Shown: positions 14,910 to 44,929 of the stretch, in pieces
How positions within the stretch are numbered: the stretch's first letter is position 1
Layout: the number at the start of each line of letters is the position of its first letter
Assembly: GCA_964487845.1 (NCBI GenBank)
Contig: CAZASK010000009.1
Location: forward strand, 5 to 64,004
Source: an uncultured bacterium
GTDB lineage: Bacteria > Chlamydiota > Chlamydiia > Chlamydiales > FEN-1388
DNA length: 64,000 nucleotides
Direction: 5' to 3'
Position numbers and translations under genes: made by a program
The notes under the pieces: generated by a model
What the model saw: the letters and a program-made list of their open reading frames with translations, nothing else
The model's database searches: none
What the model was told of the DNA's origin: nothing

Positions 14910-14967
14910 CTTTTGATGTTTTTTATATATGTGCTATAGTTATGTAAAAGTTGAATATAGAGTATAT

Positions 14968-17900
14968 ATGCAGCCGATAAAAAATTTGCAGCAACTTACT
15001 CTGGATACGCTTGTTGAGCAGGTGTCTGAAGGAAAGTTTTCTCCTAAAGGTATTAGTGGTCCCATAGCCAATAAAATTGTGGAAGCTGCTTTTAAAAAAT
15101 TAAAAGAAAACGAGGCGCTTTCTGAAGAGAGATGGAGGGGGATATCGTGCACTGAACTGAACACCAACGCTTTATCTTCTACAAACATAAAAATTTTATG
15201 TAAATTATGGGGGATGGAATTAAAAAAACTGGGTATTTCAAGCGGAGATTTTAAGGATTTTATTTTTACGTCTGATCCATTTCCAAAATTGGAGTCGTTG
15301 CATATATGCAACCCAAGAGATTTAACAAAAGAGAGTTTGCTAAAATTATGCGAAAAAATACCAGAAACATTGCAAGAATTTGTTGTTACTGAGTGTGAGC
15401 ATCTCGACGATGAGGTTATAGCCATTCTTTCAAAAAAATGTCCTCATTTAAAGATATTAAACGTGAGCGGGTATAACAAGGTTACGAAAGTTGGATCACA
15501 TTTCAAAGAACTTCAAGAACTAGATGTGTCTCGTACACAATTTACGGAAAAATCAATAGAAGAACTTGGAGGGTATCAACTCGATTCTATTAATTTATCT
15601 TACACTTCGATTGAAGATAAAGGGATTGAACTCCTCTCACAAAAATGTCCTGAATTAAAGATATTACATCTGTGCGGTTGTAAAAAGGTTACGAAGGTTG
15701 GATCAAATTTCAAAAAACTGCAGGGACTTGATGTATCTTATACAAAGTTTACGGATACATCAATAGACGAGCTAAAGGAGAATCAACTTAATTCTATTAA
15801 CATATCTCATACTCAGGTTGACAACACAGGTGTTAAATCGCTAGCGAATAGTAAAAATGGAAATACTCTTGAAGCATGTGTGATGAATGGCTGTTCTTCG
15901 ATCAGTGAATTGCCGGAGAGTTTTTCAAAAATGAAGTTCTTGGGTATTGCAGGTACAAAGATCACAGCACTACCTCGTAATATGTGCTCAGCAACAACTA
16001 TTGATGGCGTTCCGATGCTGCAGCAGGCGATGATGGATAAAAACGAATCGCTTTTTTCTTTTTTACTAGAAAGTTTGAATGAGAAAGAACTGATTGCTCA
16101 GGATAGGAGTGGAAATACAGCTCTTCATTATGCTTGTAAGCAGAAACAAAAAACAAATGTACAAGCACTAATTGAAAAAATGGATCAGTCAACATTAGGC
16201 ATTCAGGATCACGATGGGAAATCGGCTCTCAACCTCGCTATCGAATATAGGCTGACGGACATTGCCGTACAGCTTATTCATAAAATGAATCCTGACGATT
16301 TGAGCCATCAAGATAAAGAATTAGGACGACCTCTGTGGCTTGCAGTCATGTTTGACATGGACGATGTTGCAGCTGCTTTGATTGAAAAGATGCATTCTAA
16401 AAACTTGCAGCTTCAAGGCAAGAATGGACTGACACCTCTACATTTAGCTTGCCTGAAGGGCCGAAGTAATGTTGCAAAAGCCTTGATTGAAAAAATGAAT
16501 GCATCGGCGCTAAGCATACAGGATAAAGAGAAGGAATTGGCACTGCATTATGCTATTGGAAAGGACATGGACCATGTTGCAGTAGAGCTTATTAAAAAAA
16601 TGAATCCCCAAGATTTGAAGCATCGAAACAATGATGGTGATACAGCTCTCCACCTCGCATGTAAACGTAAGAACCCAGAAATTGTAAGTGCTTTGATTAA
16701 AAAAATGGATCAGTCAACATTAGCTATTCAGGATCACGATGGGAGTACAGCTCTAGAATTGGCGATTGACTTTGGACTAGATGATATTGCGGGCGATCTT
16801 ATTAAAAATATGAATTCTGAAGGTTTGAAGAAGCAAGACAAGTATGGTCGTACAGTCCTTCATACAGCTTGTCTGTATAACAGAGTAGAAGTTGCTCAAG
16901 CTTTGATTAAAAAAATGGATCAGTCAACATTATGTATCCAGAATAAAGATGGACAAACAGCTCTGCACAACGCGATTGAAAATAAGGCTAGCGACGTTGC
17001 AATAGCCCTTATTGAAAAAATGAACTCTAAAGATTTAAAACTGCAAGATTGCAATATGGATACAGCGCTGCACAAGGCGGTTTGGAAGAATAAAAACGAC
17101 GTTGCAATAGCCCTTATCGAAAAAATGAACTCTAAAGATTTAAAGTTGCAAGATAATAGAGGGGACACATGCTTGCATATGGCGTGTGCGTATACGCGAG
17201 TAGAAGTAGCGAAATTGCTGATCGAAAAAATGGATGAATCGGCACTTGGTATTCAAAATAAGGAAGGACGGCTAGCGCTGTACTGGGCGATTGAAAATAA
17301 GCATAGCGACATTGCAAAAGCTCTTATCCAAAAAATGAATCCTAAAGATTTAAAACTCCAAGGTAAGAAAAAACGAACGCCTCTTCATCATGCTGCTGAT
17401 AAAGAATTTGACGACATTGCTATGGAGTTGATTCAAAAGATGGGGTTTGAGGGTTTAAAGATTCAAGATTATCAAGGTTGTACGCCTCTTCATTTAGCTT
17501 GCCTGAAGGGCCGAAGTAATGTTGCAAAAGCCTTGATTGAAAAAATGGATGAATCGGCGCTAAGCATACAGGATAAAAAGAAGGAATTGGCACTGCATTT
17601 TGCTGTTGGCAATGACATGGATGATGTTGCAGTAGAGCTTATTCAAAAAATGAATCCAGACGATTTGAAGCATCAAAACGATGATGGTGATACAGCTCTT
17701 CATGAAGCTTGCCGAAGAAGTCGTGTAGAAGTCGCGAAATTACTGATCGAAAAAATGGATGAATCGACACTTGGTATTCAAGGGCGGGGAAAAAAGACAG
17801 CCTTGCATCTTGCTATTGAAAAGAAGTTGGGCGATGTTGCGGTAGCACTTATTGAAAAGATGCGCATTGAAGACTTGAGCCTACAAGATAGTAAGAAGTC

Positions 17901-17985
17901 AAATGCTCTATGTTACGCTTTGGAATACAAATTACAAGATGTTCTCGATGTTCTGATACCGAAAGTCGAATCTGAAGATAAATAA
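14968..17985 (+). CDS. large LRR plus ankyrin-repeat protein (eukaryote-like, effector candidate)
   Basis: N-terminal third carries FBXL/AMN1-type cysteine-containing LRRs (CPxLKILxxxGCxKVT repeated). The remainder is about 20 ankyrin repeats (G.TALH.A......VA.ALIEKM). Near-identical internal DNA duplications are present. Confidence 0.85.
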   Translation: MQPIKNLQQLTLDTLVEQVSEGKFSPKGISGPIANKIVEAAFKKLKENEALSEERWRGISCTELNTNALSSTNIKILCKLWGMELKKLGISSGDFKDFIFTSDPFPKLESLHICNPRDLTKESLLKLCEKIPETLQEFVVTECEHLDDEVIAILSKKCPHLKILNVSGYNKVTKVGSHFKELQELDVSRTQFTEKSIEELGGYQLDSINLSYTSIEDKGIELLSQKCPELKILHLCGCKKVTKVGSNFKKLQGLDVSYTKFTDTSIDELKENQLNSINISHTQVDNTGVKSLANSKNGNTLEACVMNGCSSISELPESFSKMKFLGIAGTKITALPRNMCSATTIDGVPMLQQAMMDKNESLFSFLLESLNEKELIAQDRSGNTALHYACKQKQKTNVQALIEKMDQSTLGIQDHDGKSALNLAIEYRLTDIAVQLIHKMNPDDLSHQDKELGRPLWLAVMFDMDDVAAALIEKMHSKNLQLQGKNGLTPLHLACLKGRSNVAKALIEKMNASALSIQDKEKELALHYAIGKDMDHVAVELIKKMNPQDLKHRNNDGDTALHLACKRKNPEIVSALIKKMDQSTLAIQDHDGSTALELAIDFGLDDIAGDLIKNMNSEGLKKQDKYGRTVLHTACLYNRVEVAQALIKKMDQSTLCIQNKDGQTALHNAIENKASDVAIALIEKMNSKDLKLQDCNMDTALHKAVWKNKNDVAIALIEKMNSKDLKLQDNRGDTCLHMACAYTRVEVAKLLIEKMDESALGIQNKEGRLALYWAIENKHSDIAKALIQKMNPKDLKLQGKKKRTPLHHAADKEFDDIAMELIQKMGFEGLKIQDYQGCTPLHLACLKGRSNVAKALIEKMDESALSIQDKKKELALHFAVGNDMDDVAVELIQKMNPDDLKHQNDDGDTALHEACRRSRVEVAKLLIEKMDESTLGIQGRGKKTALHLAIEKKLGDVAVALIEKMRIEDLSLQDSKKSNALCYALEYKLQDVLDVLIPKVESEDK

Positions 17986-35806: not shown

Positions 35807-36082
35807 ATGGATAAGGCACATAATAGAAATGAACCCTGCCCATGTGGCTCAGGGAAAAAATATAAAAAATGTTGCGGGGTAGTGCATCAAGCTCGCAGGC
35901 AGATGAAGGCGAAAGTAATGGCGCAAGGTCCAATAGGCGCGATTTTCAATCAGGTAACGCAGTCGATGACAGGTGATTTTTTTAAAAACAGCAAAATCAC
36001 ACAGATTCAGCAGTCAAAAAATATGACAGCTTTGGATTCTTTTAAAGAAAAGCAAAAGAAATCGGTTGAGGAGAAAGTGTAA
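35807..36082 (+). CDS. SEC-C motif (zinc-binding) small protein
   Basis: NEPCPCGSGKKYKKCCG at the N-terminus. ATG 35807 is preferred over 35726. Confidence 0.65.
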   Translation: MDKAHNRNEPCPCGSGKKYKKCCGVVHQARRQMKAKVMAQGPIGAIFNQVTQSMTGDFFKNSKITQIQQSKNMTALDSFKEKQKKSVEEKV

Positions 36083-36104
36083 AACTGATATAAATTCACC
36101 ACTC

Positions 36105-36177
36105 GCTGACATAGCTCAATTGGTAGAGCACTCGACTTGTAATCGAGCGGTTGTGGGTTCAATTCCTACTGTCAGCA
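36105..36177 (+). tRNA. tRNA-Thr (anticodon TGT)
   Basis: Acceptor GCTGACA/TGTCAGC, anticodon stem CTCGA/TCGAG with loop CTTGTAA, T-loop TTCAATT. Confidence 0.9.
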
Positions 36178-36196
36178 TTTCTACCATCTTTTTGAT

Positions 36197-36278
36197 GGGG
36201 GTGTCGCATAGTGGCAATTGCAAGAGACTGTAAATCTCTCCTCTTCGGAGTTCGCCAGTTCGAGTCTGGCCGCCCCCA
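36197..36278 (+). tRNA. tRNA-Tyr (anticodon GTA), long variable arm
   Basis: Acceptor GGGGGTG/CGCCCCC, anticodon stem AGAGA/TCTCT with loop CTGTAAA, variable arm CTC-TTCG-GAG, T-arm GCCAG/CTGGC. Confidence 0.9.
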
Positions 36279-36367
36279 TTCATATTCCGGCTACCTTTAT
36301 TCGATATTATAGTCGATTAAATTTTGTATGACGCATTTTGACCTGCGAGCTTTCAAGAAATACTCAT

Positions 36368-36538
36368 TTAATTAGGCCAGAGGTACACCCAGTAAGCATT
36401 AAGGAGTTCTTGCTGCTCAATCGTCAAAGGGTCGAGTACAATATAGCTTTCATCATTGCGTGTGAAGGATGATTTGGACCAGTTGGCAGACCCGTTTACT
36501 AAAATTGGGTAGTTATAAACAGGTAGTGATGAAGAGGT
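36368..36538 (-). pseudogene. phospholipase D-family gene fragment (C-terminal ~56 codons only)
   Basis: The minus-strand frame reads TSSSLPVYNYPILVNGSANWSKSSFTRNDESYIVLDPLTIEQQELLNAYWVYLWPN*. GSANW..S...N.E is the tail of an HKD motif. An in-frame TGA lies immediately upstream and there is no start codon. Confidence 0.55.
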
Positions 36539-36588
36539 TCAAATTTATGAAAGTTTCGATATACTGACTGGAAAAACTAGGAAAGCTT

Positions 36589-37500
36589 ATGCAAGTTATA
36601 AGTCGTTTTGCTGTATTTGACCGAAGTGAATTCTTTCTCGCTAAAATTTCATCTGAGAAGCAATTTTATAACGAGTTTCATTTCAGAAGGCGCTACATAA
36701 GTGTATTGCAACAAGTTGCTAGCGAATGGTCCAAAACAAAACTATCCGAAGAAAAATGCTTTAAGATCAAATTTTCAGAGCCAAACTTCAATTTAAAGAA
36801 AATGAATGAGTCGTATTCTTCAGAGATAGTCGGTTATTTCACTGAACAAGGTCTTGAAGATAAACAAGTCTATGCAATAAACGGTTTAATTTATAACGCT
36901 GATCTTAGTTTCTACAATTCCAGTAAGCAATTAGATTTTGAAACAGGTGATGGTGAGATGATTGTAATGGACCGCTTAGGAAACATGTTTATCGCTCCTA
37001 AGGAACGAGGTATATTTCATCACTCATCGTTTTTTAGTGGAAAGCCTGTAGCTTTTGCTGCCTTATGTTTCATAAAGGATGGCAAAATCCAAGAACTGCT
37101 TAGATACAGTGGGCATTATTCGCCAAGTGAACAAGAAGAATGTGCCTTCACAAAACAATTGCAAACCAACTATCTTGTTGAAGAACGGGCTTATAGTGAT
37201 CTAAAAATTGATAGTACAGGTTGTTTAATACAAAGAATTTCCATCCTGTCCAAAGAAAAAGTTGAAGACTTATATAATGCTATTGCTGAATTAGGGGGAT
37301 TTTGCAGATCACGCTTGCACCTTATCAGTGGTGATAAGGTTGTTCCCTCTGCAAAGTTAGTAGATAAACAATTTGTTGATATGACAATAGCAGAATCTAA
37401 CTTAAAAAATCACTGTATAATTGATGCAGATGAATTCACCTACACTCCTTATCATAGGATATACCCTATTAGCAAATTTGAGTTGATCATTAACGATTAG
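36589..37500 (+). CDS. hypothetical protein (303 aa)
   Basis: Long ORF. Contains the conserved-looking block MDRLGNMFIAPKERGIFHHSSFFSGKPVAFAALCFIKDGKIQELLRYSGHYSP. I cannot assign a family. Confidence 0.5.
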   Translation: MQVISRFAVFDRSEFFLAKISSEKQFYNEFHFRRRYISVLQQVASEWSKTKLSEEKCFKIKFSEPNFNLKKMNESYSSEIVGYFTEQGLEDKQVYAINGLIYNADLSFYNSSKQLDFETGDGEMIVMDRLGNMFIAPKERGIFHHSSFFSGKPVAFAALCFIKDGKIQELLRYSGHYSPSEQEECAFTKQLQTNYLVEERAYSDLKIDSTGCLIQRISILSKEKVEDLYNAIAELGGFCRSRLHLISGDKVVPSAKLVDKQFVDMTIAESNLKNHCIIDADEFTYTPYHRIYPISKFELIIND

Positions 37501-37545
37501 TACATGAGAGAGCAGTAATTTTATATAAATATTGCTGACCCTCTA

Positions 37546-37593
37546 TTTTAACGCGGGTCTCCTATTAACCAAATAAATATTTGAGAAATTTTT
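37546..37593. repeat. 48-nt repeat, an inverted copy of 1..48
   Basis: 47/48 identical to the reverse complement of 1..48. Lies 46 nt after the stop of the 36589..37500 gene. Confidence 0.8.
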
Positions 37594-37869
37594 AGATAGA
37601 AAAACAACCTACGTTGAGAGTAAAAAGTTTGTGACTAACGAACAACTATAATCTCAATCAAAAACGGCATGAAGAGGACTCTTGCAATGGCAGCTAGATT
37701 GATTGGTCAGCCGATTACATGTTAATGCTGGACACATTGAAGGGCGCGCAGCGTGACGTTCACTTTCTTCCCGTCTACCGAATTTCATGGTATGAAAGGT
37801 GTAATTCTTGATATACACCTCCTTTTAATAGCGGCCAAAGGTCATTAAAAAAAACAGACAAGCTTGTTT

Positions 37870-38595
37870 ATGCTACAGTGGATATGTATTTTTTTATTTT
37901 ATGTCACAGCTTCTCTCTGTGCTCAAGATGCATGGGTGTCTTTCAAAAATGAGACTGTTTTAGAAATGAAGGCTATACCCGGGTGGTGTTCCTCAGAAAA
38001 GGCTCTCTTCATCATGGATATTATAAAAGAGAATAAATGCCAGTATTGCATTGAAGTTGGGGTTTTTTCAGGTATGTCCTTACTTCCTATAGCTAAAGCT
38101 CTACAATATAACGGATCAGGTACAGTTTTTGCTATTGATGCCTGGGATCCCTTTGAAGCGATAAAAGGTTTTAGTTCTTCTGACCCTAATTATATATGGT
38201 GGAGCCAGCTGGACTTTAACCATTTTTATGGACAAACTGTAGATTTAATTAATAAAAATAAACTAAATAATTTTTGTGACATCATAAAAAAGCCTTCACA
38301 TAATGCGGCATGTCTATTTATTGATGAAACCATAGATTTTATCCATTTGGATGGAAATCACAACGAAGAGTGTGCGTTTCAAGATGTAATTGACTACTTC
38401 CCCAAAGTGAAAGATGGCGGATATATTTTACTTAATGATCCAAACTGGTTAAGCATGAAGCGCTCTCTGGTTTTTCTTTTGGAGAGAGCTGAGCTGGTTT
38501 CTCTTTTTTCACCCTCCGCAACATATTTTCTTTTTCGTAAAAACAACCAGCGAGAAAAAAGTGCAAATATTTTATTTAAAAAATTAACTTCTTAA
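37870..38595 (+). CDS. class I SAM-dependent methyltransferase (Methyltransf_24-like) with an N-terminal signal/anchor
   Basis: MLQWICIFLFYVTASLCAQDAW N-terminus. CIEVGVFSGMS (motif I-like), AIDAW, IHLDGNH. Confidence 0.6.
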   Translation: MLQWICIFLFYVTASLCAQDAWVSFKNETVLEMKAIPGWCSSEKALFIMDIIKENKCQYCIEVGVFSGMSLLPIAKALQYNGSGTVFAIDAWDPFEAIKGFSSSDPNYIWWSQLDFNHFYGQTVDLINKNKLNNFCDIIKKPSHNAACLFIDETIDFIHLDGNHNEECAFQDVIDYFPKVKDGGYILLNDPNWLSMKRSLVFLLERAELVSLFSPSATYFLFRKNNQREKSANILFKKLTS

Positions 38596-38608
38596 CTGAG
38601 TGTCTTTT

Positions 38609-39454
38609 ATGAATATAAAATATTTTAGGTATTGCACTTTTCCATTTTTCATCACGCTCTTTACATGCGTAGCACAGCTGTGTCATTCAGAAGATTCGAT
38701 GTTTTGGTGGCAATCTAGTGAAGGGATTAATTTTGGAGATGATTTATCAAGAGTCATTGTAGAGAAAATTCTCGGTCATTCTGTTAAGTATAGATCTTTA
38801 GAATCAGATGGAAAACTGTTATTAGCGGCAGGATCAATCTTGCATTATGCTAGAGATGGTGATGTTATTTGGGGATCAGGTTTTCGAGAAAACCCCTTAT
38901 CAGAAAATAGATTCTCTCATCTTCATGTAAGAGCTGTGAGAGGGCCAAAAACAAGGGAATTTCTTCTTAAGATGGGCATCAATTGTCCTGAAATATATGG
39001 AGACCCGGCAGTATTAATGAGCTATTTATTTCCAGAGTTCAAACAAGAAGCGCCAATTTATGATTACATCATCATACCGAATATTGGAGAAATACAGTGC
39101 TTTCTAGGTTACAAAAATATCGTTTTACCCACGCGTCCATGGCAGGAAATTGTAAAAAAAATGATGCAAAGTAGACTAGTGATTTCTAGTTCTTTACATG
39201 GGATAATCGTCGCCGAATCTTTTGGAATACCTGCTCGCCTGCTTAAAATGACATGGATTGAGCCCTTGTTAAAATATCAGGATTACTATGAATCGAGTGG
39301 TAGGCCAAACTTCCGATACGCAACCTCAGTTCAGGAAGCTTTGCAAATGGGGGGTGAAGACCCAAGTAGCCTAGACATACATCCTCTCATAGAATCTTTC
39401 CCATGGGATTATTTTGAGAGCAATCATGATATTGATAAGCCAATACAGGAGTGA
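38609..39454 (+). CDS. polysaccharide pyruvyl transferase-family protein with a hydrophobic N-terminus
   Basis: NFGDDLS..I, GSIL, RGP.T, and SSSLHGIIVAESFGIPA match the PS_pyruv_trans pattern. N-terminus is MNIKYFRYCTFPFFITLFTCVAQLC. Confidence 0.65.
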   Translation: MNIKYFRYCTFPFFITLFTCVAQLCHSEDSMFWWQSSEGINFGDDLSRVIVEKILGHSVKYRSLESDGKLLLAAGSILHYARDGDVIWGSGFRENPLSENRFSHLHVRAVRGPKTREFLLKMGINCPEIYGDPAVLMSYLFPEFKQEAPIYDYIIIPNIGEIQCFLGYKNIVLPTRPWQEIVKKMMQSRLVISSSLHGIIVAESFGIPARLLKMTWIEPLLKYQDYYESSGRPNFRYATSVQEALQMGGEDPSSLDIHPLIESFPWDYFESNHDIDKPIQE

Positions 39455-39602
39455 TTGCTGCTTGAATGTACTAACTTTTAGAAGAATAAGCCTTGGCGAT
39501 ATAACCATTCCCGTGAAAGTTGGTTTACACTGTTTTTACACTTGGAATTACCAACGGAATCCTATATAAATATTTAAGTTTTATTATTGTGAAGAGGTCT
39601 CA

Positions 39603-40172
39603 ATGAAAATAGCTATCATCGGCACGCATGGAGCTGGGAAGACAACGCTTTCGTATCTCATGGCGGCTGCGTATAAAAAAATAGGGACGAATGTAAAAAT
39701 TGTGCAAGAGGTAGCAAGAAGTTGTCCGTATCCTTTGAATGAGGGGATGAGTCGAGAGGCATGTCTGTGGATTTATCATGAGCATGTAAAAAAAGAATTA
39801 GATGCGATACAAAAGCATGATATCGTTATCTGTGATCGTTCTGCTTTAGATTCTTTCATGTATGCGAAAGCTCAAAATTGTTATGATTATACAGATCGAG
39901 GAATCAATCTTTGCTTTGAAAGCGCTTCTCATTGGATGAAGACATACGATCAAATTATCTATGTAAAACCAGGCAAGATTAAGCCCATGGAAGATGGAGT
40001 GCGCTCCGTAGATTTAGAATTCCAAAGACGAGTTGCAGAGCAATTCAATGAGTGGTTTTTGAACAATAGCACTGTGATCAAGTCTGCAGAGCTAGACGCA
40101 GACGCAATATTTGATCAAGAGAACCTTATGGAAAGATTACTTGAAAAAGCACGCTGCTGCATCGCATCGTAG
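39603..40172 (+). CDS. AAA_28 P-loop kinase (NadR ribosylnicotinamide-kinase-domain-like)
   Basis: MKIAIIGTHGAGKTTL P-loop, VQEVAR, ICDRSALDSFMY. Confidence 0.55.
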   Translation: MKIAIIGTHGAGKTTLSYLMAAAYKKIGTNVKIVQEVARSCPYPLNEGMSREACLWIYHEHVKKELDAIQKHDIVICDRSALDSFMYAKAQNCYDYTDRGINLCFESASHWMKTYDQIIYVKPGKIKPMEDGVRSVDLEFQRRVAEQFNEWFLNNSTVIKSAELDADAIFDQENLMERLLEKARCCIAS

Positions 40173-40230
40173 TCTCACTATAGATTCGATATGTAGCCCG
40201 TGTGTATAATTTCTGAACAAGGAGATAAAA

Positions 40231-40458
40231 ATGTTTATTTGGGTGATTACAGCAATTGCTCTTTTTGGAACCTGGTTAAATGCAAAGCAGAATGCATATG
40301 GCTTTTTGTTTTGGATGGTGTCTAATGCCGCATTTTGTATATGGAATTACCAAATAGAGCAATATGCTCAGTCTGTATTGTTTTTTGTCTATTTATGGCT
40401 GGCTATATTTGGGTATGTAAGCTGGCGCAAAAAAGAACGAAAAGTAGAAGCTGCATAG
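40231..40458 (+). CDS. 3-TM mini PnuC-like membrane protein (75 aa)
   Basis: Strong RBS AAGGAGA. Three TM segments. The pattern LNAKQN..GFLFWMVSNAAFCIWNY......SVLFFVYLWLAIFGYVSW resembles the C-terminal triple-helix bundle of PnuC nicotinamide riboside transporters. Confidence 0.5.
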   Translation: MFIWVITAIALFGTWLNAKQNAYGFLFWMVSNAAFCIWNYQIEQYAQSVLFFVYLWLAIFGYVSWRKKERKVEAA

Positions 40459-40483
40459 CGCTCGTAAGAGAGCGCCCTAAAAA

Positions 40484-40849
40484 TTAAGAAAAAATATCTT
40501 CTTTCTTTTTGCTAGCTAGCTCGCCGTCGTAAAAAAGATCAAATCGCGCGATCAAATTGTCTTTGAAAGTAAGGAGTGAGGCTCCTGGAAAGTTTTTACT
40601 CACGCCAGGCATGTCTACTTCGTAGACAATGATGGCTTGGTTTTTATTTCCAAATTTTGCTCGTATTGTCAGTGATTCAATTGCATGTATAAAATTGCTC
40701 ACCGTTTCGTAAACTGCTTCTTTCCCTTTTACTGTAGCGAGTGGGCTGTAGAGCTCAACATCTGGATCAAGGTAGTGTGCAATTTCAGCGACCTTTTTTT
40801 CGCCTATAAGAGTGTAGTACTCTTCTGCTTGTGTTGTAAGGTTACTCAT
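40484..40849 (-). CDS. SnoaL/NTF2-like small protein
   Basis: 121 aa. Alpha+beta cone-like pattern (YLDPDVELYSPL...G.EAV). Divergent from the TetR gene. By-eye call. Confidence 0.45.
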   Translation of the reverse strand: MSNLTTQAEEYYTLIGEKKVAEIAHYLDPDVELYSPLATVKGKEAVYETVSNFIHAIESLTIRAKFGNKNQAIIVYEVDMPGVSKNFPGASLLTFKDNLIARFDLFYDGELASKKKEDIFS

Positions 40850-41664: not shown

Positions 41665-43047
41665 TTAGCGGTTGCTCATGTATGGTAGTTTGTGAGGCTC
41701 TGAAAAGCTGGGGGTTGTATTTTTTGGATCAGTTAGGTCCCATAGCTGGATGTAGCCATTTGTTTCTCCGCTACGAGCAGAACCTGCAGTGACAAGAAGA
41801 TTGTTATCGGGTAAAAGACCGAGATTTGTATGGCGATGATTCGTGCCATTGAAGGAGCAAATATTCTGGAATCGAGGTTTCTGCTCGTATTCTGTATTAA
41901 GATGATAGAAGCTGATATTTCCATTGGCTAGATTTACTGTTTGTGTACGATTTTGTGTGCTGTTTGTGCGTGGTCTGAGTGTTGTAGCTAGGGTGTTATT
42001 TTCTGTAAATAAAAGTCGTGTAATCGCATGAGCAATCTTGAGTTGATGAATTGGTTCTTCTGACTGAATGTTGAGTGAGTGAAGGGTGCCGTCCTTTAGG
42101 CCTCCACCAGCTACAAGCTCAGTGCTGGAATAAGGATTCCAAGAAACTTGCATAGCAGCATAATTGATTGGATCGGCTAAGATAGTAATAATTTCCGCAT
42201 CTTCAATATTTTTTCTTATGTCATAAATTTTGACTGTTCCATTGTTCATGCCGGTGGCAAATAGAGACGGATTTTTTTGAGATACGGAGACGCTAGCTAA
42301 TTTGTCTGCCACATCAAATATTTTGCTTTCAACCATCTCATTTATTCGAAAGTCGCATAAAAGAAGACTTGTTTGTGACCGTTCACTTGGTAAGGCGCCG
42401 ATTAAAAATGTATTATTATCGATAGAAGTAAGTTGATTGGGTGTATGATCCGGTATCTCCAATAGATGTATCCTCTTCTGGCAATTCACATCGTATGACC
42501 AAACAGAAAAAGAGTTGGTAATCCGATTCATTACAGAGGTGAAAACTGTATGTGCATTACCCCACTGTATGTCATGAGGTAGGAATGTTTTATAAGTATT
42601 CTTTTCTTCATCTTCACATATGCCTGGAAATGGAATGGTGTGCTTAACTTTGTAATTTTTCGAAAATCCAAGGGTATCTTGTGGCACCGTTAGAATGTGC
42701 ACACCGTTATCTATTGTGCTGTGGTCATTGACAGTGTAAGCAATAGCGTTTCCGCGGCAGGTGATATTTTTTGTATAGTAATCATCCGTTATCCCTTCAT
42801 AGGGGATTACGTGTTTTGCTATTGGATTGATTGTATTTCGTTTGTTTTTGAGTTGTTCGTTGAGGTTTTTTTGTAGTAATTTATTGGATATAATTTTACT
42901 TGCAATAGTGTCAATTGGCAGGTCGAGAGCTTTGAATAACGATGGTTGTTCTACACACTGAGGATTTGTTGTTGCATAATATAGGGATGAGAGATTTAGT
43001 GGGTGCCCTCTATGTGAATCTACTCGTGTCATTACTGGGTTGTTCAT
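41665..43047 (-). CDS. WD40-like beta-propeller protein (eukaryote-like)
   Basis: Repeated blade endings: GTVKIYDI, GYIQLWDL, SVWSYDV, GNISFYHL, GTLHSLNI. Confidence 0.55.
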   Translation of the reverse strand: MNNPVMTRVDSHRGHPLNLSSLYYATTNPQCVEQPSLFKALDLPIDTIASKIISNKLLQKNLNEQLKNKRNTINPIAKHVIPYEGITDDYYTKNITCRGNAIAYTVNDHSTIDNGVHILTVPQDTLGFSKNYKVKHTIPFPGICEDEEKNTYKTFLPHDIQWGNAHTVFTSVMNRITNSFSVWSYDVNCQKRIHLLEIPDHTPNQLTSIDNNTFLIGALPSERSQTSLLLCDFRINEMVESKIFDVADKLASVSVSQKNPSLFATGMNNGTVKIYDIRKNIEDAEIITILADPINYAAMQVSWNPYSSTELVAGGGLKDGTLHSLNIQSEEPIHQLKIAHAITRLLFTENNTLATTLRPRTNSTQNRTQTVNLANGNISFYHLNTEYEQKPRFQNICSFNGTNHRHTNLGLLPDNNLLVTAGSARSGETNGYIQLWDLTDPKNTTPSFSEPHKLPYMSNR

Positions 43048-44833: not shown

Positions 44834-44929
44834 ATCGACGAATCCAACAGTTGTTTCTATAAAATTCGTGCAATTTTTTTGTTGTAATTGATAGTTTCAT
44901 GATTTTTTCATGCATGTCTGGATTTGATT

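Follow-up and report, generated by a model that had tools for sequence, protein, structure and literature searches.

The locus considered here is a methyltransferase gene and a pyruvyl transferase gene that lie side by side in a 64,000-nucleotide (nt) stretch of a chlamydial contig (CAZASK010000009.1), referred to below as the window, and several described systems come close to it in some respects and differ in others. Pvg1p of S. pombe (structure 5ax7), a pyruvyl transferase of the Golgi, belongs to the same Pfam family as the chlamydial pyruvyl transferase, has a GT-B-like fold, which the chlamydial model matches only weakly, and, as proposed here for the pair, holds its catalytic domain outside the cytosol and works on phosphoenolpyruvate (PEP) that is brought in. 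It is, however, a larger protein (~330 ordered residues) and a eukaryotic type II membrane protein with an anchor, whereas the chlamydial enzyme has a short, predicted cleavable signal peptide of the bacterial type and no stalk. Among bacteria, GumL, CsaB, WcaK and ExoV share membership of the PS_pyruv_trans family with the window enzyme, which we take to be similar to GumL in size, but they have no signal peptide, work at the cytoplasmic face and are encoded in polysaccharide gene clusters, a context that is lacking around the window gene. The methyltransferase compares with MeT1 of Mycobacterium hassiacum and with the CCoAOMT-type enzymes, which have the same S-adenosylmethionine (SAM) motif I and putatively the same acidic/Asn metal-site motifs but are cytosolic, lack a signal peptide and are 15-20% identical to it. 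Outside the clade, the relatives that come closest and match best in structure are giant-virus and phage pyruvyl transferases and Methyltransf_24 proteins (IMG/VR, BFVD), but they have no N-terminal hydrophobic segment and many of them lie within larger multi-domain proteins. A precedent of another kind is provided by GlgA and GlgB of C. trachomatis, which act in the inclusion lumen on UDP-glucose from a recruited host transporter (PMC6717882). Like the pair as we propose it to work, GlgA, GlgB and GlgX are chlamydial carbohydrate enzymes of cytosolic type that depend on a nucleotide sugar and act outside the bacterial cytoplasm with a host-supplied donor (PMC6717882), but they are exported by type III secretion, have no Sec signal, belong to other families and serve storage polymer metabolism. 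The proteins CPAF, HtrA (cHtrA), CT311, CT795 and Ptr each have a Sec signal peptide, are secreted by the Sec/type II route and are then found in the inclusion lumen or the host cytosol (PMC6717882, PMC3107777); unlike the pair, these are proteases or proteins of unassigned function, and none of them depends on SAM, PEP, ATP or a nucleoside diphosphate (NDP) sugar. By analogy, the pair would come nearest to a Sec-dependent, bacterial version of the glycan tailoring that Pvg1p carries out in a eukaryotic lumen, and it would also resemble the glycogen enzymes of the inclusion lumen. From each of these systems it is set apart by the route of secretion, the type of signal or the family of the enzyme.

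The methyltransferase gene (37870..38595, + strand; open reading frame (ORF) 37864/37870..38595) encodes 241 amino acids (aa) from its ATG and is of the class I SAM-dependent O-methyltransferase-like type, with a match to Pfam Methyltransf_24 (PF13578) at E 4.5e-18 and 66.5 bits against a gathering cutoff of 26.3. It is separated by 13 nt (38596..38608, +) from the pyruvyl transferase gene (38609..39454, +; ORF 38600/38609..39454; 281 aa from ATG), and the two form a bicistronic module. The pyruvyl transferase is of the small GumL/ExoV-like type and matches PS_pyruv_trans (PF04230) at E 3e-15 and 57.3 bits against a cutoff of 25.3, although the match spans only profile positions 96-274 of 280. 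Each protein opens with a predicted signal peptide. That of the methyltransferase comprises aa 1-18 (37870..37923, +), MLQWICIFLFYVTASLCA followed by QD, with the cleavage position placed by the (-3,-1) rule, and that of the pyruvyl transferase comprises aa 1-27 (38609..38689, +), MNIKYFRYCTFPFFITLFTCVAQLCHS followed by EDSMFWW, where cleavage is likewise predicted. The adjacency of the two genes is kept in loci L001-L014, L017 and L020, and the named homologs of both come from Parachlamydiaceae or from metagenome-assembled genomes (MAGs) of Chlamydiia; the methyltransferase and the pyruvyl transferase are a self-contained, portable two-gene module of Chlamydiota. We propose that the pair is exported by the Sec pathway, keeps its chemistry and decorates a glycan outside the cytoplasm with SAM and PEP derived from the host, a reading that, on the basis of sequence comparison, we hold with a probability of about 0.55. 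It is built on observed features, namely the ORFs, their family membership, the presence and conservation of the signals, the absence of such signals from outgroup relatives and the conservation of the operon.

The signal calls were made by hydropathy, charge and (-3,-1) heuristics together with a comparison of homologs. A looser first heuristic scored 23 of the 56 ORFs of the window, including Rossmann N-termini and membrane proteins, and was replaced by the family-level comparison and a stricter core criterion. A strong hydrophobic core is present in 64 of 72 methyltransferase homologs and in 100 of 116 pyruvyl transferase homologs, and its median length is 14 residues in the homologs of both families. 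The n-region has a charge of +1.5 to +2 (+1.5 in the methyltransferase), against a mean of -1 for the 15 residues that follow the core. The N-terminal segments are only 21-23% identical in pairwise comparison, against 49-62% for the mature parts, and have a mean hydropathy of +0.9 to +1.1, against -0.2 to -0.3 for the mature parts. Nearly all full-length homologs open with an M-K/R-rich stretch and an uncharged hydrophobic run, and small residues stand at -3/-1, the segments ending for example in SLCA|QD, SLFA|QD and CYS|ED in homologs of the pair and in VFS|LSPP and LSA|YEL in the ATP-grasp and GT92 families described below. By these heuristics, the properties of a Sec/signal peptidase I substrate (positive n-region, uncharged core of 7-15 residues and small residues at -3/-1) are found family-wide. 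The original prediction had quoted the N-termini MLQWICIFLFYVTASLCA and MNIKYFRYCTFPFFITLFTCVAQLC, which are exact, and had given both a basic n-region, which is absent from the methyltransferase of this genome though homologs have it, typically as MKK. It had also described signal or anchor sequences with cores of 15-20 residues; the signal part of that description holds and the anchor part does not, since the cores are short and small residues at -3/-1 follow, and for that reason we read the segments as cleavable. Hence the N-termini behave as cleavable Sec/signal peptidase I signals that appear to be fused directly to the catalytic domain, with a predicted N-in/C-out topology.

The charge distribution also bears on whether the segment might be an uncleaved anchor that leaves the catalytic domain facing the cytoplasm (N-out, C-in), near undecaprenyl-phosphate-linked intermediates and served by cytoplasmic SAM and PEP. 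Such an arrangement would remove the paradox of cofactor-dependent enzymes on the far side of the membrane. Bacterial pyruvyl transferases and glycan methyltransferases (GumL, CsaB, WbdD-type) normally act on lipid-linked intermediates at the cytoplasmic face, and the lack of a basic residue in the n-region of this genome's methyltransferase would fit as well. It is opposed, however, by the positive-inside rule, since the n-region is positive, the post-core stretch is net negative, and the former exceeds the latter in charge in 56 of the 64 methyltransferases and 95 of the 100 pyruvyl transferases with a strong core, by a median core too short for a stable transmembrane helix, by the small residues at -3/-1 just ahead of the domain and by the orthologs in a Vicinamibacterales MAG, which have no such segment at all. 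We therefore regard a cytoplasm-facing anchor as quite improbable and continue with the cleavable signal.

Other kinds of N-terminal signal were considered and rejected. A lipoprotein signal (signal peptidase II), with its lipobox L-[AS]-[GA]-C and an invariant Cys at +1, does not fit the methyltransferase, where the Cys is not conserved (SLFA, SLFS and PLTA occur). Nor does it fit the pyruvyl transferase: C-[YH]-S is frequent in close orthologs, yet its Cys is preceded by L, P, T, M or V where a lipobox would call for G, A or S. A Tat signal was excluded because neither the window proteins nor the listed homologs have an RR motif, and a chlamydial Inc-type domain, which is bilobed and 40-60 residues long, because the only hydrophobic run is short and lies right at the N-terminus. 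The resemblance to Golgi type II membrane enzymes that the original prediction had pointed out is not borne out either: an anchor of that kind has a span of ~18-22 residues and a stalk, whereas here the cores are ~14 residues long, there is no stalk, an AxA-like site lies directly before the catalytic domain and that domain starts 3-8 residues after the core. Separately, we observed that a Cys two residues ahead of the predicted cleavage site is kept in close pyruvyl transferase orthologs (window 38675-38689; P0076-P0108; C-[YH]-S then E-D). It could be the -3 residue of a signal peptidase I site, or could have another role.

The possibility also has to be weighed that the true starts are M34 of the methyltransferase and M31 of the pyruvyl transferase and that both are ordinary cytosolic enzymes. 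In-frame ATGs are indeed present at these two positions, the methyltransferase homologs P0017, P0018, P0029 and P0055 and the pyruvyl transferase homologs P0088, P0091, P0096, P0109 and P0137 are called from the internal Met, and no clear Shine-Dalgarno sequence precedes either upstream ATG. The gene calls of NCBI and Logan nevertheless agree on the starts of both genes, and homolog P0076, which is 100% identical to the window pyruvyl transferase, has the same start. Of 78 pyruvyl transferase loci, ~60 have CTT, TTA, CTC, CTA or ATT, none of them taken as a start, immediately ahead of the FWW/YYW motif, with an ATG 22-45 codons upstream that is followed by a hydrophobic run, while in the methyltransferase W22, which is upstream of the internal Met34, is nearly invariant. 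Moreover, the hydrophobicity and the charge asymmetry persist despite sequence drift, which is not expected of untranslated DNA, and L003 has an open frame ahead of its called start that would encode a signal-like stretch. Alternative downstream starts, which the original prediction had asked to be checked, thus do not explain the segment, and we see hardly any chance that it is a start-codon artefact. As the open upstream frame of L003 (5215-5949) contains no ATG, translation there would have to begin at another codon. Signals of this kind are at times cut off by gene callers, and with them the localisation is lost from the annotation.

The models of both proteins are confident. That of the methyltransferase has a predicted local distance difference test (pLDDT) score of 95. 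Among solved structures it comes closest to MeT1, a sugar 1-O-methyltransferase (6g7d; E 3e-12, template modelling (TM) score 0.67-0.73), followed by Mg-dependent CCoAOMT-type O-methyltransferases; the top 50 PDB matches are all SAM methyltransferases. Its SAM motif I, IEVGVFSGMS, aligns with LEIGVFTGYS of CCoAOMT. G64, G68 and D90 are invariant, D90 being the acidic residue that ends strand 2, and E62 is nearly so; in the putative metal-site motif D161 is invariant and G162 and N163 are conserved. LNDPNW is presumably the second CCoAOMT metal-site motif, which would complete an Asp/Asp/Asn triad. The model of the pyruvyl transferase has a pLDDT of 91 and resembles predicted giant-virus pyruvyl transferases in BFVD (E 1e-16 to 1e-14, TM 0.64-0.73), and across 30 diverse sequences 47 positions are invariant, including R111, R116, H197, R210, K222 and R232, basic residues that would be compatible with PEP-dependent ketal-pyruvyl transfer. 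Its 'SSSLHG' may correspond to the PEP-binding 'RLH' of Pvg1p, with Ser in place of Arg, but the argument does not draw on this. The JGI product name of the pyruvyl transferase homologs is 'pyruvyltransferase'. The enzyme misses the threshold of the CsaB equivalog (TIGR03609) with 15.4 bits against 213.1, and apart from this sub-threshold CsaB match NCBIfam has no specific family for the pyruvyl transferase, nor any for the methyltransferase, the ATP-grasp or the GT92 proteins. We infer that the first enzyme is probably a metal-dependent, sugar-type SAM O-methyltransferase and the second a small GumL/Pvg1-like ketal-pyruvyl transferase.

These motifs also bear on a further explanation, according to which the proteins are exported but repurposed and use neither SAM nor PEP, acting instead as host-metabolite binding proteins or as enzymes that cleave methylated or pyruvylated glycans (hydrolases or lyases). 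Neither SAM nor PEP is known from the periplasm of free-living bacteria, the searchable literature contains neither 'periplasmic methyltransferase' nor 'extracytoplasmic methyltransferase' as a phrase, and neither subfamily has a characterised member. Repurposing would nonetheless have to account for a methyltransferase that keeps SAM motif I, the acidic residue that follows strand 2 and the D-G-N of the putative metal site, and for a pyruvyl transferase with several invariant Arg, Lys and His residues of a kind that would suit an anionic donor. The same motifs are found in the relatives without a signal, viral and Vicinamibacterales alike, and the alignments thus give no sign of active-site decay particular to the exported clade. 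We think it unlikely that the exported enzymes have given up their donors, and we retain catalysis in the proposal. The cysteine of the GWC motif was rejected as a sign of a periplasmic disulfide, as it is also conserved in the signal-less viral relatives.

The relatives that lack the signal are informative about its origin. Close homologs keep it, and the signal-less relatives are either distant viral proteins or belong to a free-living acidobacterium, so that a search for close cytosolic bacterial homologs with the same N-terminus, which the original prediction had named as a possible refutation, did not refute the signal. The phage and giant-virus relatives (IMG/VR) are 27-42% identical to the pair and lie on large contigs, including GVMAG contigs; the pyruvyl transferases among them share an NFGD...YGDP signature and the methyltransferases a GWC..EKA...VEIGVFGGxSL signature. 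None of ~70 stand-alone viral pyruvyl transferases and none of ~50 viral methyltransferases has an N-terminal hydrophobic segment; the viral relatives begin 10-20 residues ahead of the first motif, and many are domains of larger multi-domain proteins. The acidobacterial case is a Vicinamibacterales MAG of 70% GC content (guanine plus cytosine; L014, 5311-6762) in which the gene pair is present and both signals are absent, the methyltransferase starting MWEACKQSVIDEIRGLPGWC and the pyruvyl transferase MASPIDPSEDGPLFWW. In a rough neighbor-joining (NJ) tree, which has no support values and was rooted on the viral sequences by choice, this signal-less copy is sister to the chlamydial ortholog group, inside a larger signal-bearing radiation, and the viral sequences fall outside the whole of that radiation. 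The position of the L014 pair suggests that the genes passed to a free-living host and lost both signals in the process, and the predicted signal is, by this comparison, a clade-specific addition.

The data also speak to the idea, likewise part of the original prediction, that the genes were acquired from a eukaryote together with their targeting sequence, or more broadly that Golgi-type enzymes of eukaryotic or giant-virus origin arrived with a type II signal anchor. In its favor, the best matches of the pyruvyl transferase in the viral structure library are pyruvyl transferases of Mimivirus, Pithovirus and Klosneuvirus type, the relatives of both families on large IMG/VR contigs include those on GVMAG contigs, Pvg1p is a Golgi pyruvyl transferase, and GT92, a member of which is encoded in this window, is a family best known from eukaryotic Golgi enzymes. 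Against it, the stand-alone viral relatives all begin with the catalytic domain and have no hydrophobic segment, the segments of the chlamydial proteins are short, apparently cleavable, bacterial in type and without a stalk, and the rough tree, with the rooting just stated, keeps the viral sequences outside the signal-bearing radiation. No eukaryote-labelled protein is among the homolog matches, and outside the clade the closest matches come from bacteria or viruses and have no N-terminal hydrophobic segment. An import of this kind is very improbable in our judgement, and a signal added within the bacterial clade is what we carry forward.

The signal is not confined to the paired genes. A genome scan found 431 pyruvyl transferase relatives, in which distant paralogs are widespread in Chlamydiota, sometimes with several per genome, and these distant chlamydial paralogs stand alone and yet are signal-bearing. 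A Candidatus Babeliales MAG of the Dependentiae type (L010, 356-1940) also carries the pair, with a signal-bearing pyruvyl transferase of 66% identity and an adjoining phage-type integrase. Dependentiae are another lineage of amoeba-associated intracellular bacteria.

Based on these observations, we put forward the following hypothetical route. Both enzymes would cross the inner membrane by Sec and, with their signals cleaved, enter the periplasm, from which onward travel to the inclusion lumen or the host would be possible by type II secretion or vesicles. There they would cap a glycan with O-methyl and pyruvate-ketal groups, and this glycan might be part of the bacterial envelope or a host glycan that faces the symbiont. 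SAM and PEP would be supplied by the host cell, with imported host small molecules reaching the periplasm via outer-membrane pores. The original prediction had reasoned that SAM and PEP are not available in a bacterial periplasm, and that premise is weaker for an obligate intracellular bacterium, given that Chlamydiae import SAM (PMC3104491) and nucleotides (PMC5381601) from the host; since this import crosses the inner membrane, its route has to lead through the periplasm. The original prediction had suggested export into the inclusion or the host, which is plausible by analogy because Sec/type II-secreted chlamydial proteins and the glycogen enzymes of the inclusion lumen are precedents.

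Several points weigh against this proposal. The export calls are heuristic predictions. The best solved matches of the pyruvyl transferase model, 6x1l (an uncharacterised Klebsiella protein) and Pvg1p (5ax7), are weak with a TM of ~0.45; the Foldseek match to 5ax7 has a probability of 1.0 but a TM of 0.44-0.45, a root-mean-square deviation of ~9 Å and 15% identity, and the profile of the pyruvyl transferase found no match among PDB sequences even at E<=10. With no characterised member in either subfamily, the use of SAM and PEP and the glycan substrate are putative and derive from family membership alone. No third conserved neighbor of the gene pair was found across the compared loci, and hence there is no clue to the substrate from that side. 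This genome and its closest orthologs have in-frame ATGs at or near the starts of the mature domains (M31 and M34), from which a small share of cytosolic protein might be made. Finally, some signal-bearing pyruvyl transferase relatives are found in MAGs labelled Verrucomicrobiae, Bacteroidetes or Myxococcales, and donors from a host could not explain the signals in general if these bacteria should prove to be free-living. Loci L040, L043 and L033 (labelled Myxococcales, Bacteroidetes and Acidobacteriota) have a GC content of 0.41-0.46 and chlamydia-like signal-bearing pyruvyl transferases, and some of these MAGs may be mis-binned, given that this GC is unusually low for at least Myxococcales.

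The same combination of a donor-dependent enzyme and an export signal recurs elsewhere in the window, as the original prediction had claimed for a TupA-like ATP-grasp enzyme, a GT92 glycosyltransferase, a ROK-ankyrin protein and myo-inositol oxygenase (MIOX). For the first two the claim stands. The TupA-like ATP-grasp gene (56720..57658, +; Pfam E 8.9e-25; predicted signal peptide aa 1-20, ...IFS then VSPP) is followed directly downstream by the GT92-like gene (57661..58533, +; Glyco_transf_92 E 1.1e-21; predicted signal peptide aa 1-19, ...SVVA then NERE), and the two make a second adjacent pair in the window. About 33 of 35 close TupA-like homologs (46-65% identity) are signal-bearing, with ...FS|(L/V)SPP, whereas two distant matches (25-30% identity) have no signal. 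The GT92-like protein has 9335 relatives in an exhaustive search, and among the best 150 of them 100 of 110 stand-alone representatives are signal-bearing, with ...A|YEL directly before the first strand of the domain. MIOX (51481..52341, +; gene call starting at 51481; Pfam E 1.2e-98) has a weaker, signal-like N-terminus of borderline hydropathy, MLKKILLGAYCFSGAMSNQVNAC. The ankyrin protein (44924..46159, +) is signal-peptide-bearing and has C-terminal repeats (Ank_2, E 3.6e-30), but its N-terminal 287 aa have no Pfam match at E<=1, so that the ankyrin repeats are confirmed and the ROK assignment is not. By a lax criterion 18 of 54 window ORFs are positive, mostly integral membrane or genuinely exported proteins, with two evident cytosolic false positives, and a signal-like N-terminus is absent from the housekeeping enzymes of the window (MurB, Mur ligase, PheS, a GT9 heptosyltransferase-type protein and a class V aminotransferase).

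As at least two other glycan-related families of the window, the TupA-like ATP-grasp and GT92, appear to be relocated in the same way as the pair, glycan tailoring seems to have shifted outside the cytoplasm across the lineage. A bolder version, which we put forward tentatively and at clearly less than even odds, is that Chlamydiota, and perhaps others such as the Babeliales of L010, moved SAM-, PEP-, ATP-grasp- and NDP-sugar-dependent glycan-tailoring enzymes outside, where they would form a Golgi-like pathway fed with host donors in the periplasm or the inclusion lumen. If so, usable ATP, SAM, PEP and nucleotide sugars would be present in the periplasm or the inclusion, and the signal-less operon of the free-living acidobacterium would be a natural reversal.

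In the textbook view, the periplasm is without ATP, SAM, PEP and nucleotide sugars, so that glycans are built and decorated with such donors at the cytoplasmic face only and lipid-linked donors serve the steps in the periplasm. In one obligate intracellular phylum, conserved export signals are now seen on at least four families that depend on such donors, and their free-living and viral relatives have none, which suggests that the rule of a donor-free periplasm is relaxed when the 'outside' is a host cell. We found no description of signal-bearing bacterial pyruvyl transferases, of periplasmic SAM methyltransferases or of GT92 or pyruvyl transferases in Chlamydiae in the searchable literature, which leaves out most subscription journals. 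If the proposal is true, it offers a testable handle on the small molecules of the chlamydial periplasm and inclusion lumen, a long-standing question, points to methylated and pyruvylated glycans at the symbiont-host interface, and adds a class of Sec-dependent candidate effectors.

The window has a GC content of ~0.40, and the stretch 36000-40500 that holds the pair has 0.367-0.371, below its neighbors at 34-36 kb (0.446) and 40-42 kb (0.415). This stretch lies directly downstream of tRNA-Thr and tRNA-Tyr (36105-36279), and the context of the gene pair differs in every other locus compared; it may be an acquired islet. A 303-aa ORF within it (36589-37500) has no family match, and a scan for promoters and terminators gave background level. 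A GT2-TPR protein is near the pair in just three loci, and the neighborhoods of the Vicinamibacterales (L014) and Babeliales (L010) loci were uninformative. Among the other copies, both genes are present twice in L011 (3481-7491) as a tandem duplication, and L012 (4437-5987) and L017 (4293-5972) have methyltransferase ORFs of about 516-560 aa, over double the usual length, probably through fusion at the N-terminus.

Downstream of the pair, 39603-40458 holds an AAA_28 (NadR-like kinase/ATPase) gene and then a 75-aa ORF that matches only the C-terminal 63 positions (113-175 of 175) of the nicotinamide mononucleotide (NMN) transporter (PnuC) profile, and from this partial match the ORF appears to be what truncation has left of a NadR-PnuC pair. 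Close to the ankyrin gene are two further genes for signal-peptide-bearing proteins, one with collagen triple-helix repeats (46184-47026, - strand; E 9.6e-07) and one with no family match (47254-47844, +). Eukaryote-like repeat proteins are encoded at 14929-17985 (1018 aa, ankyrin plus leucine-rich repeats (LRR)), 41665-43047 (a WD40 beta-propeller) and 48042-48578 (LRR), and a Chlam_PMP/beta-helix protein is also present in the window. Such eukaryote-like repeat proteins are typical of amoeba-associated chlamydiae and, like the GC content, the Chlam_PMP protein and the names of the homologs, mark the window as chlamydia-like. The MIOX gene (51481-52341) is followed by a gene for a major facilitator superfamily (MFS) transporter of the sugar type (52546-53787), and the two could be an inositol or glucuronate utilisation pair.

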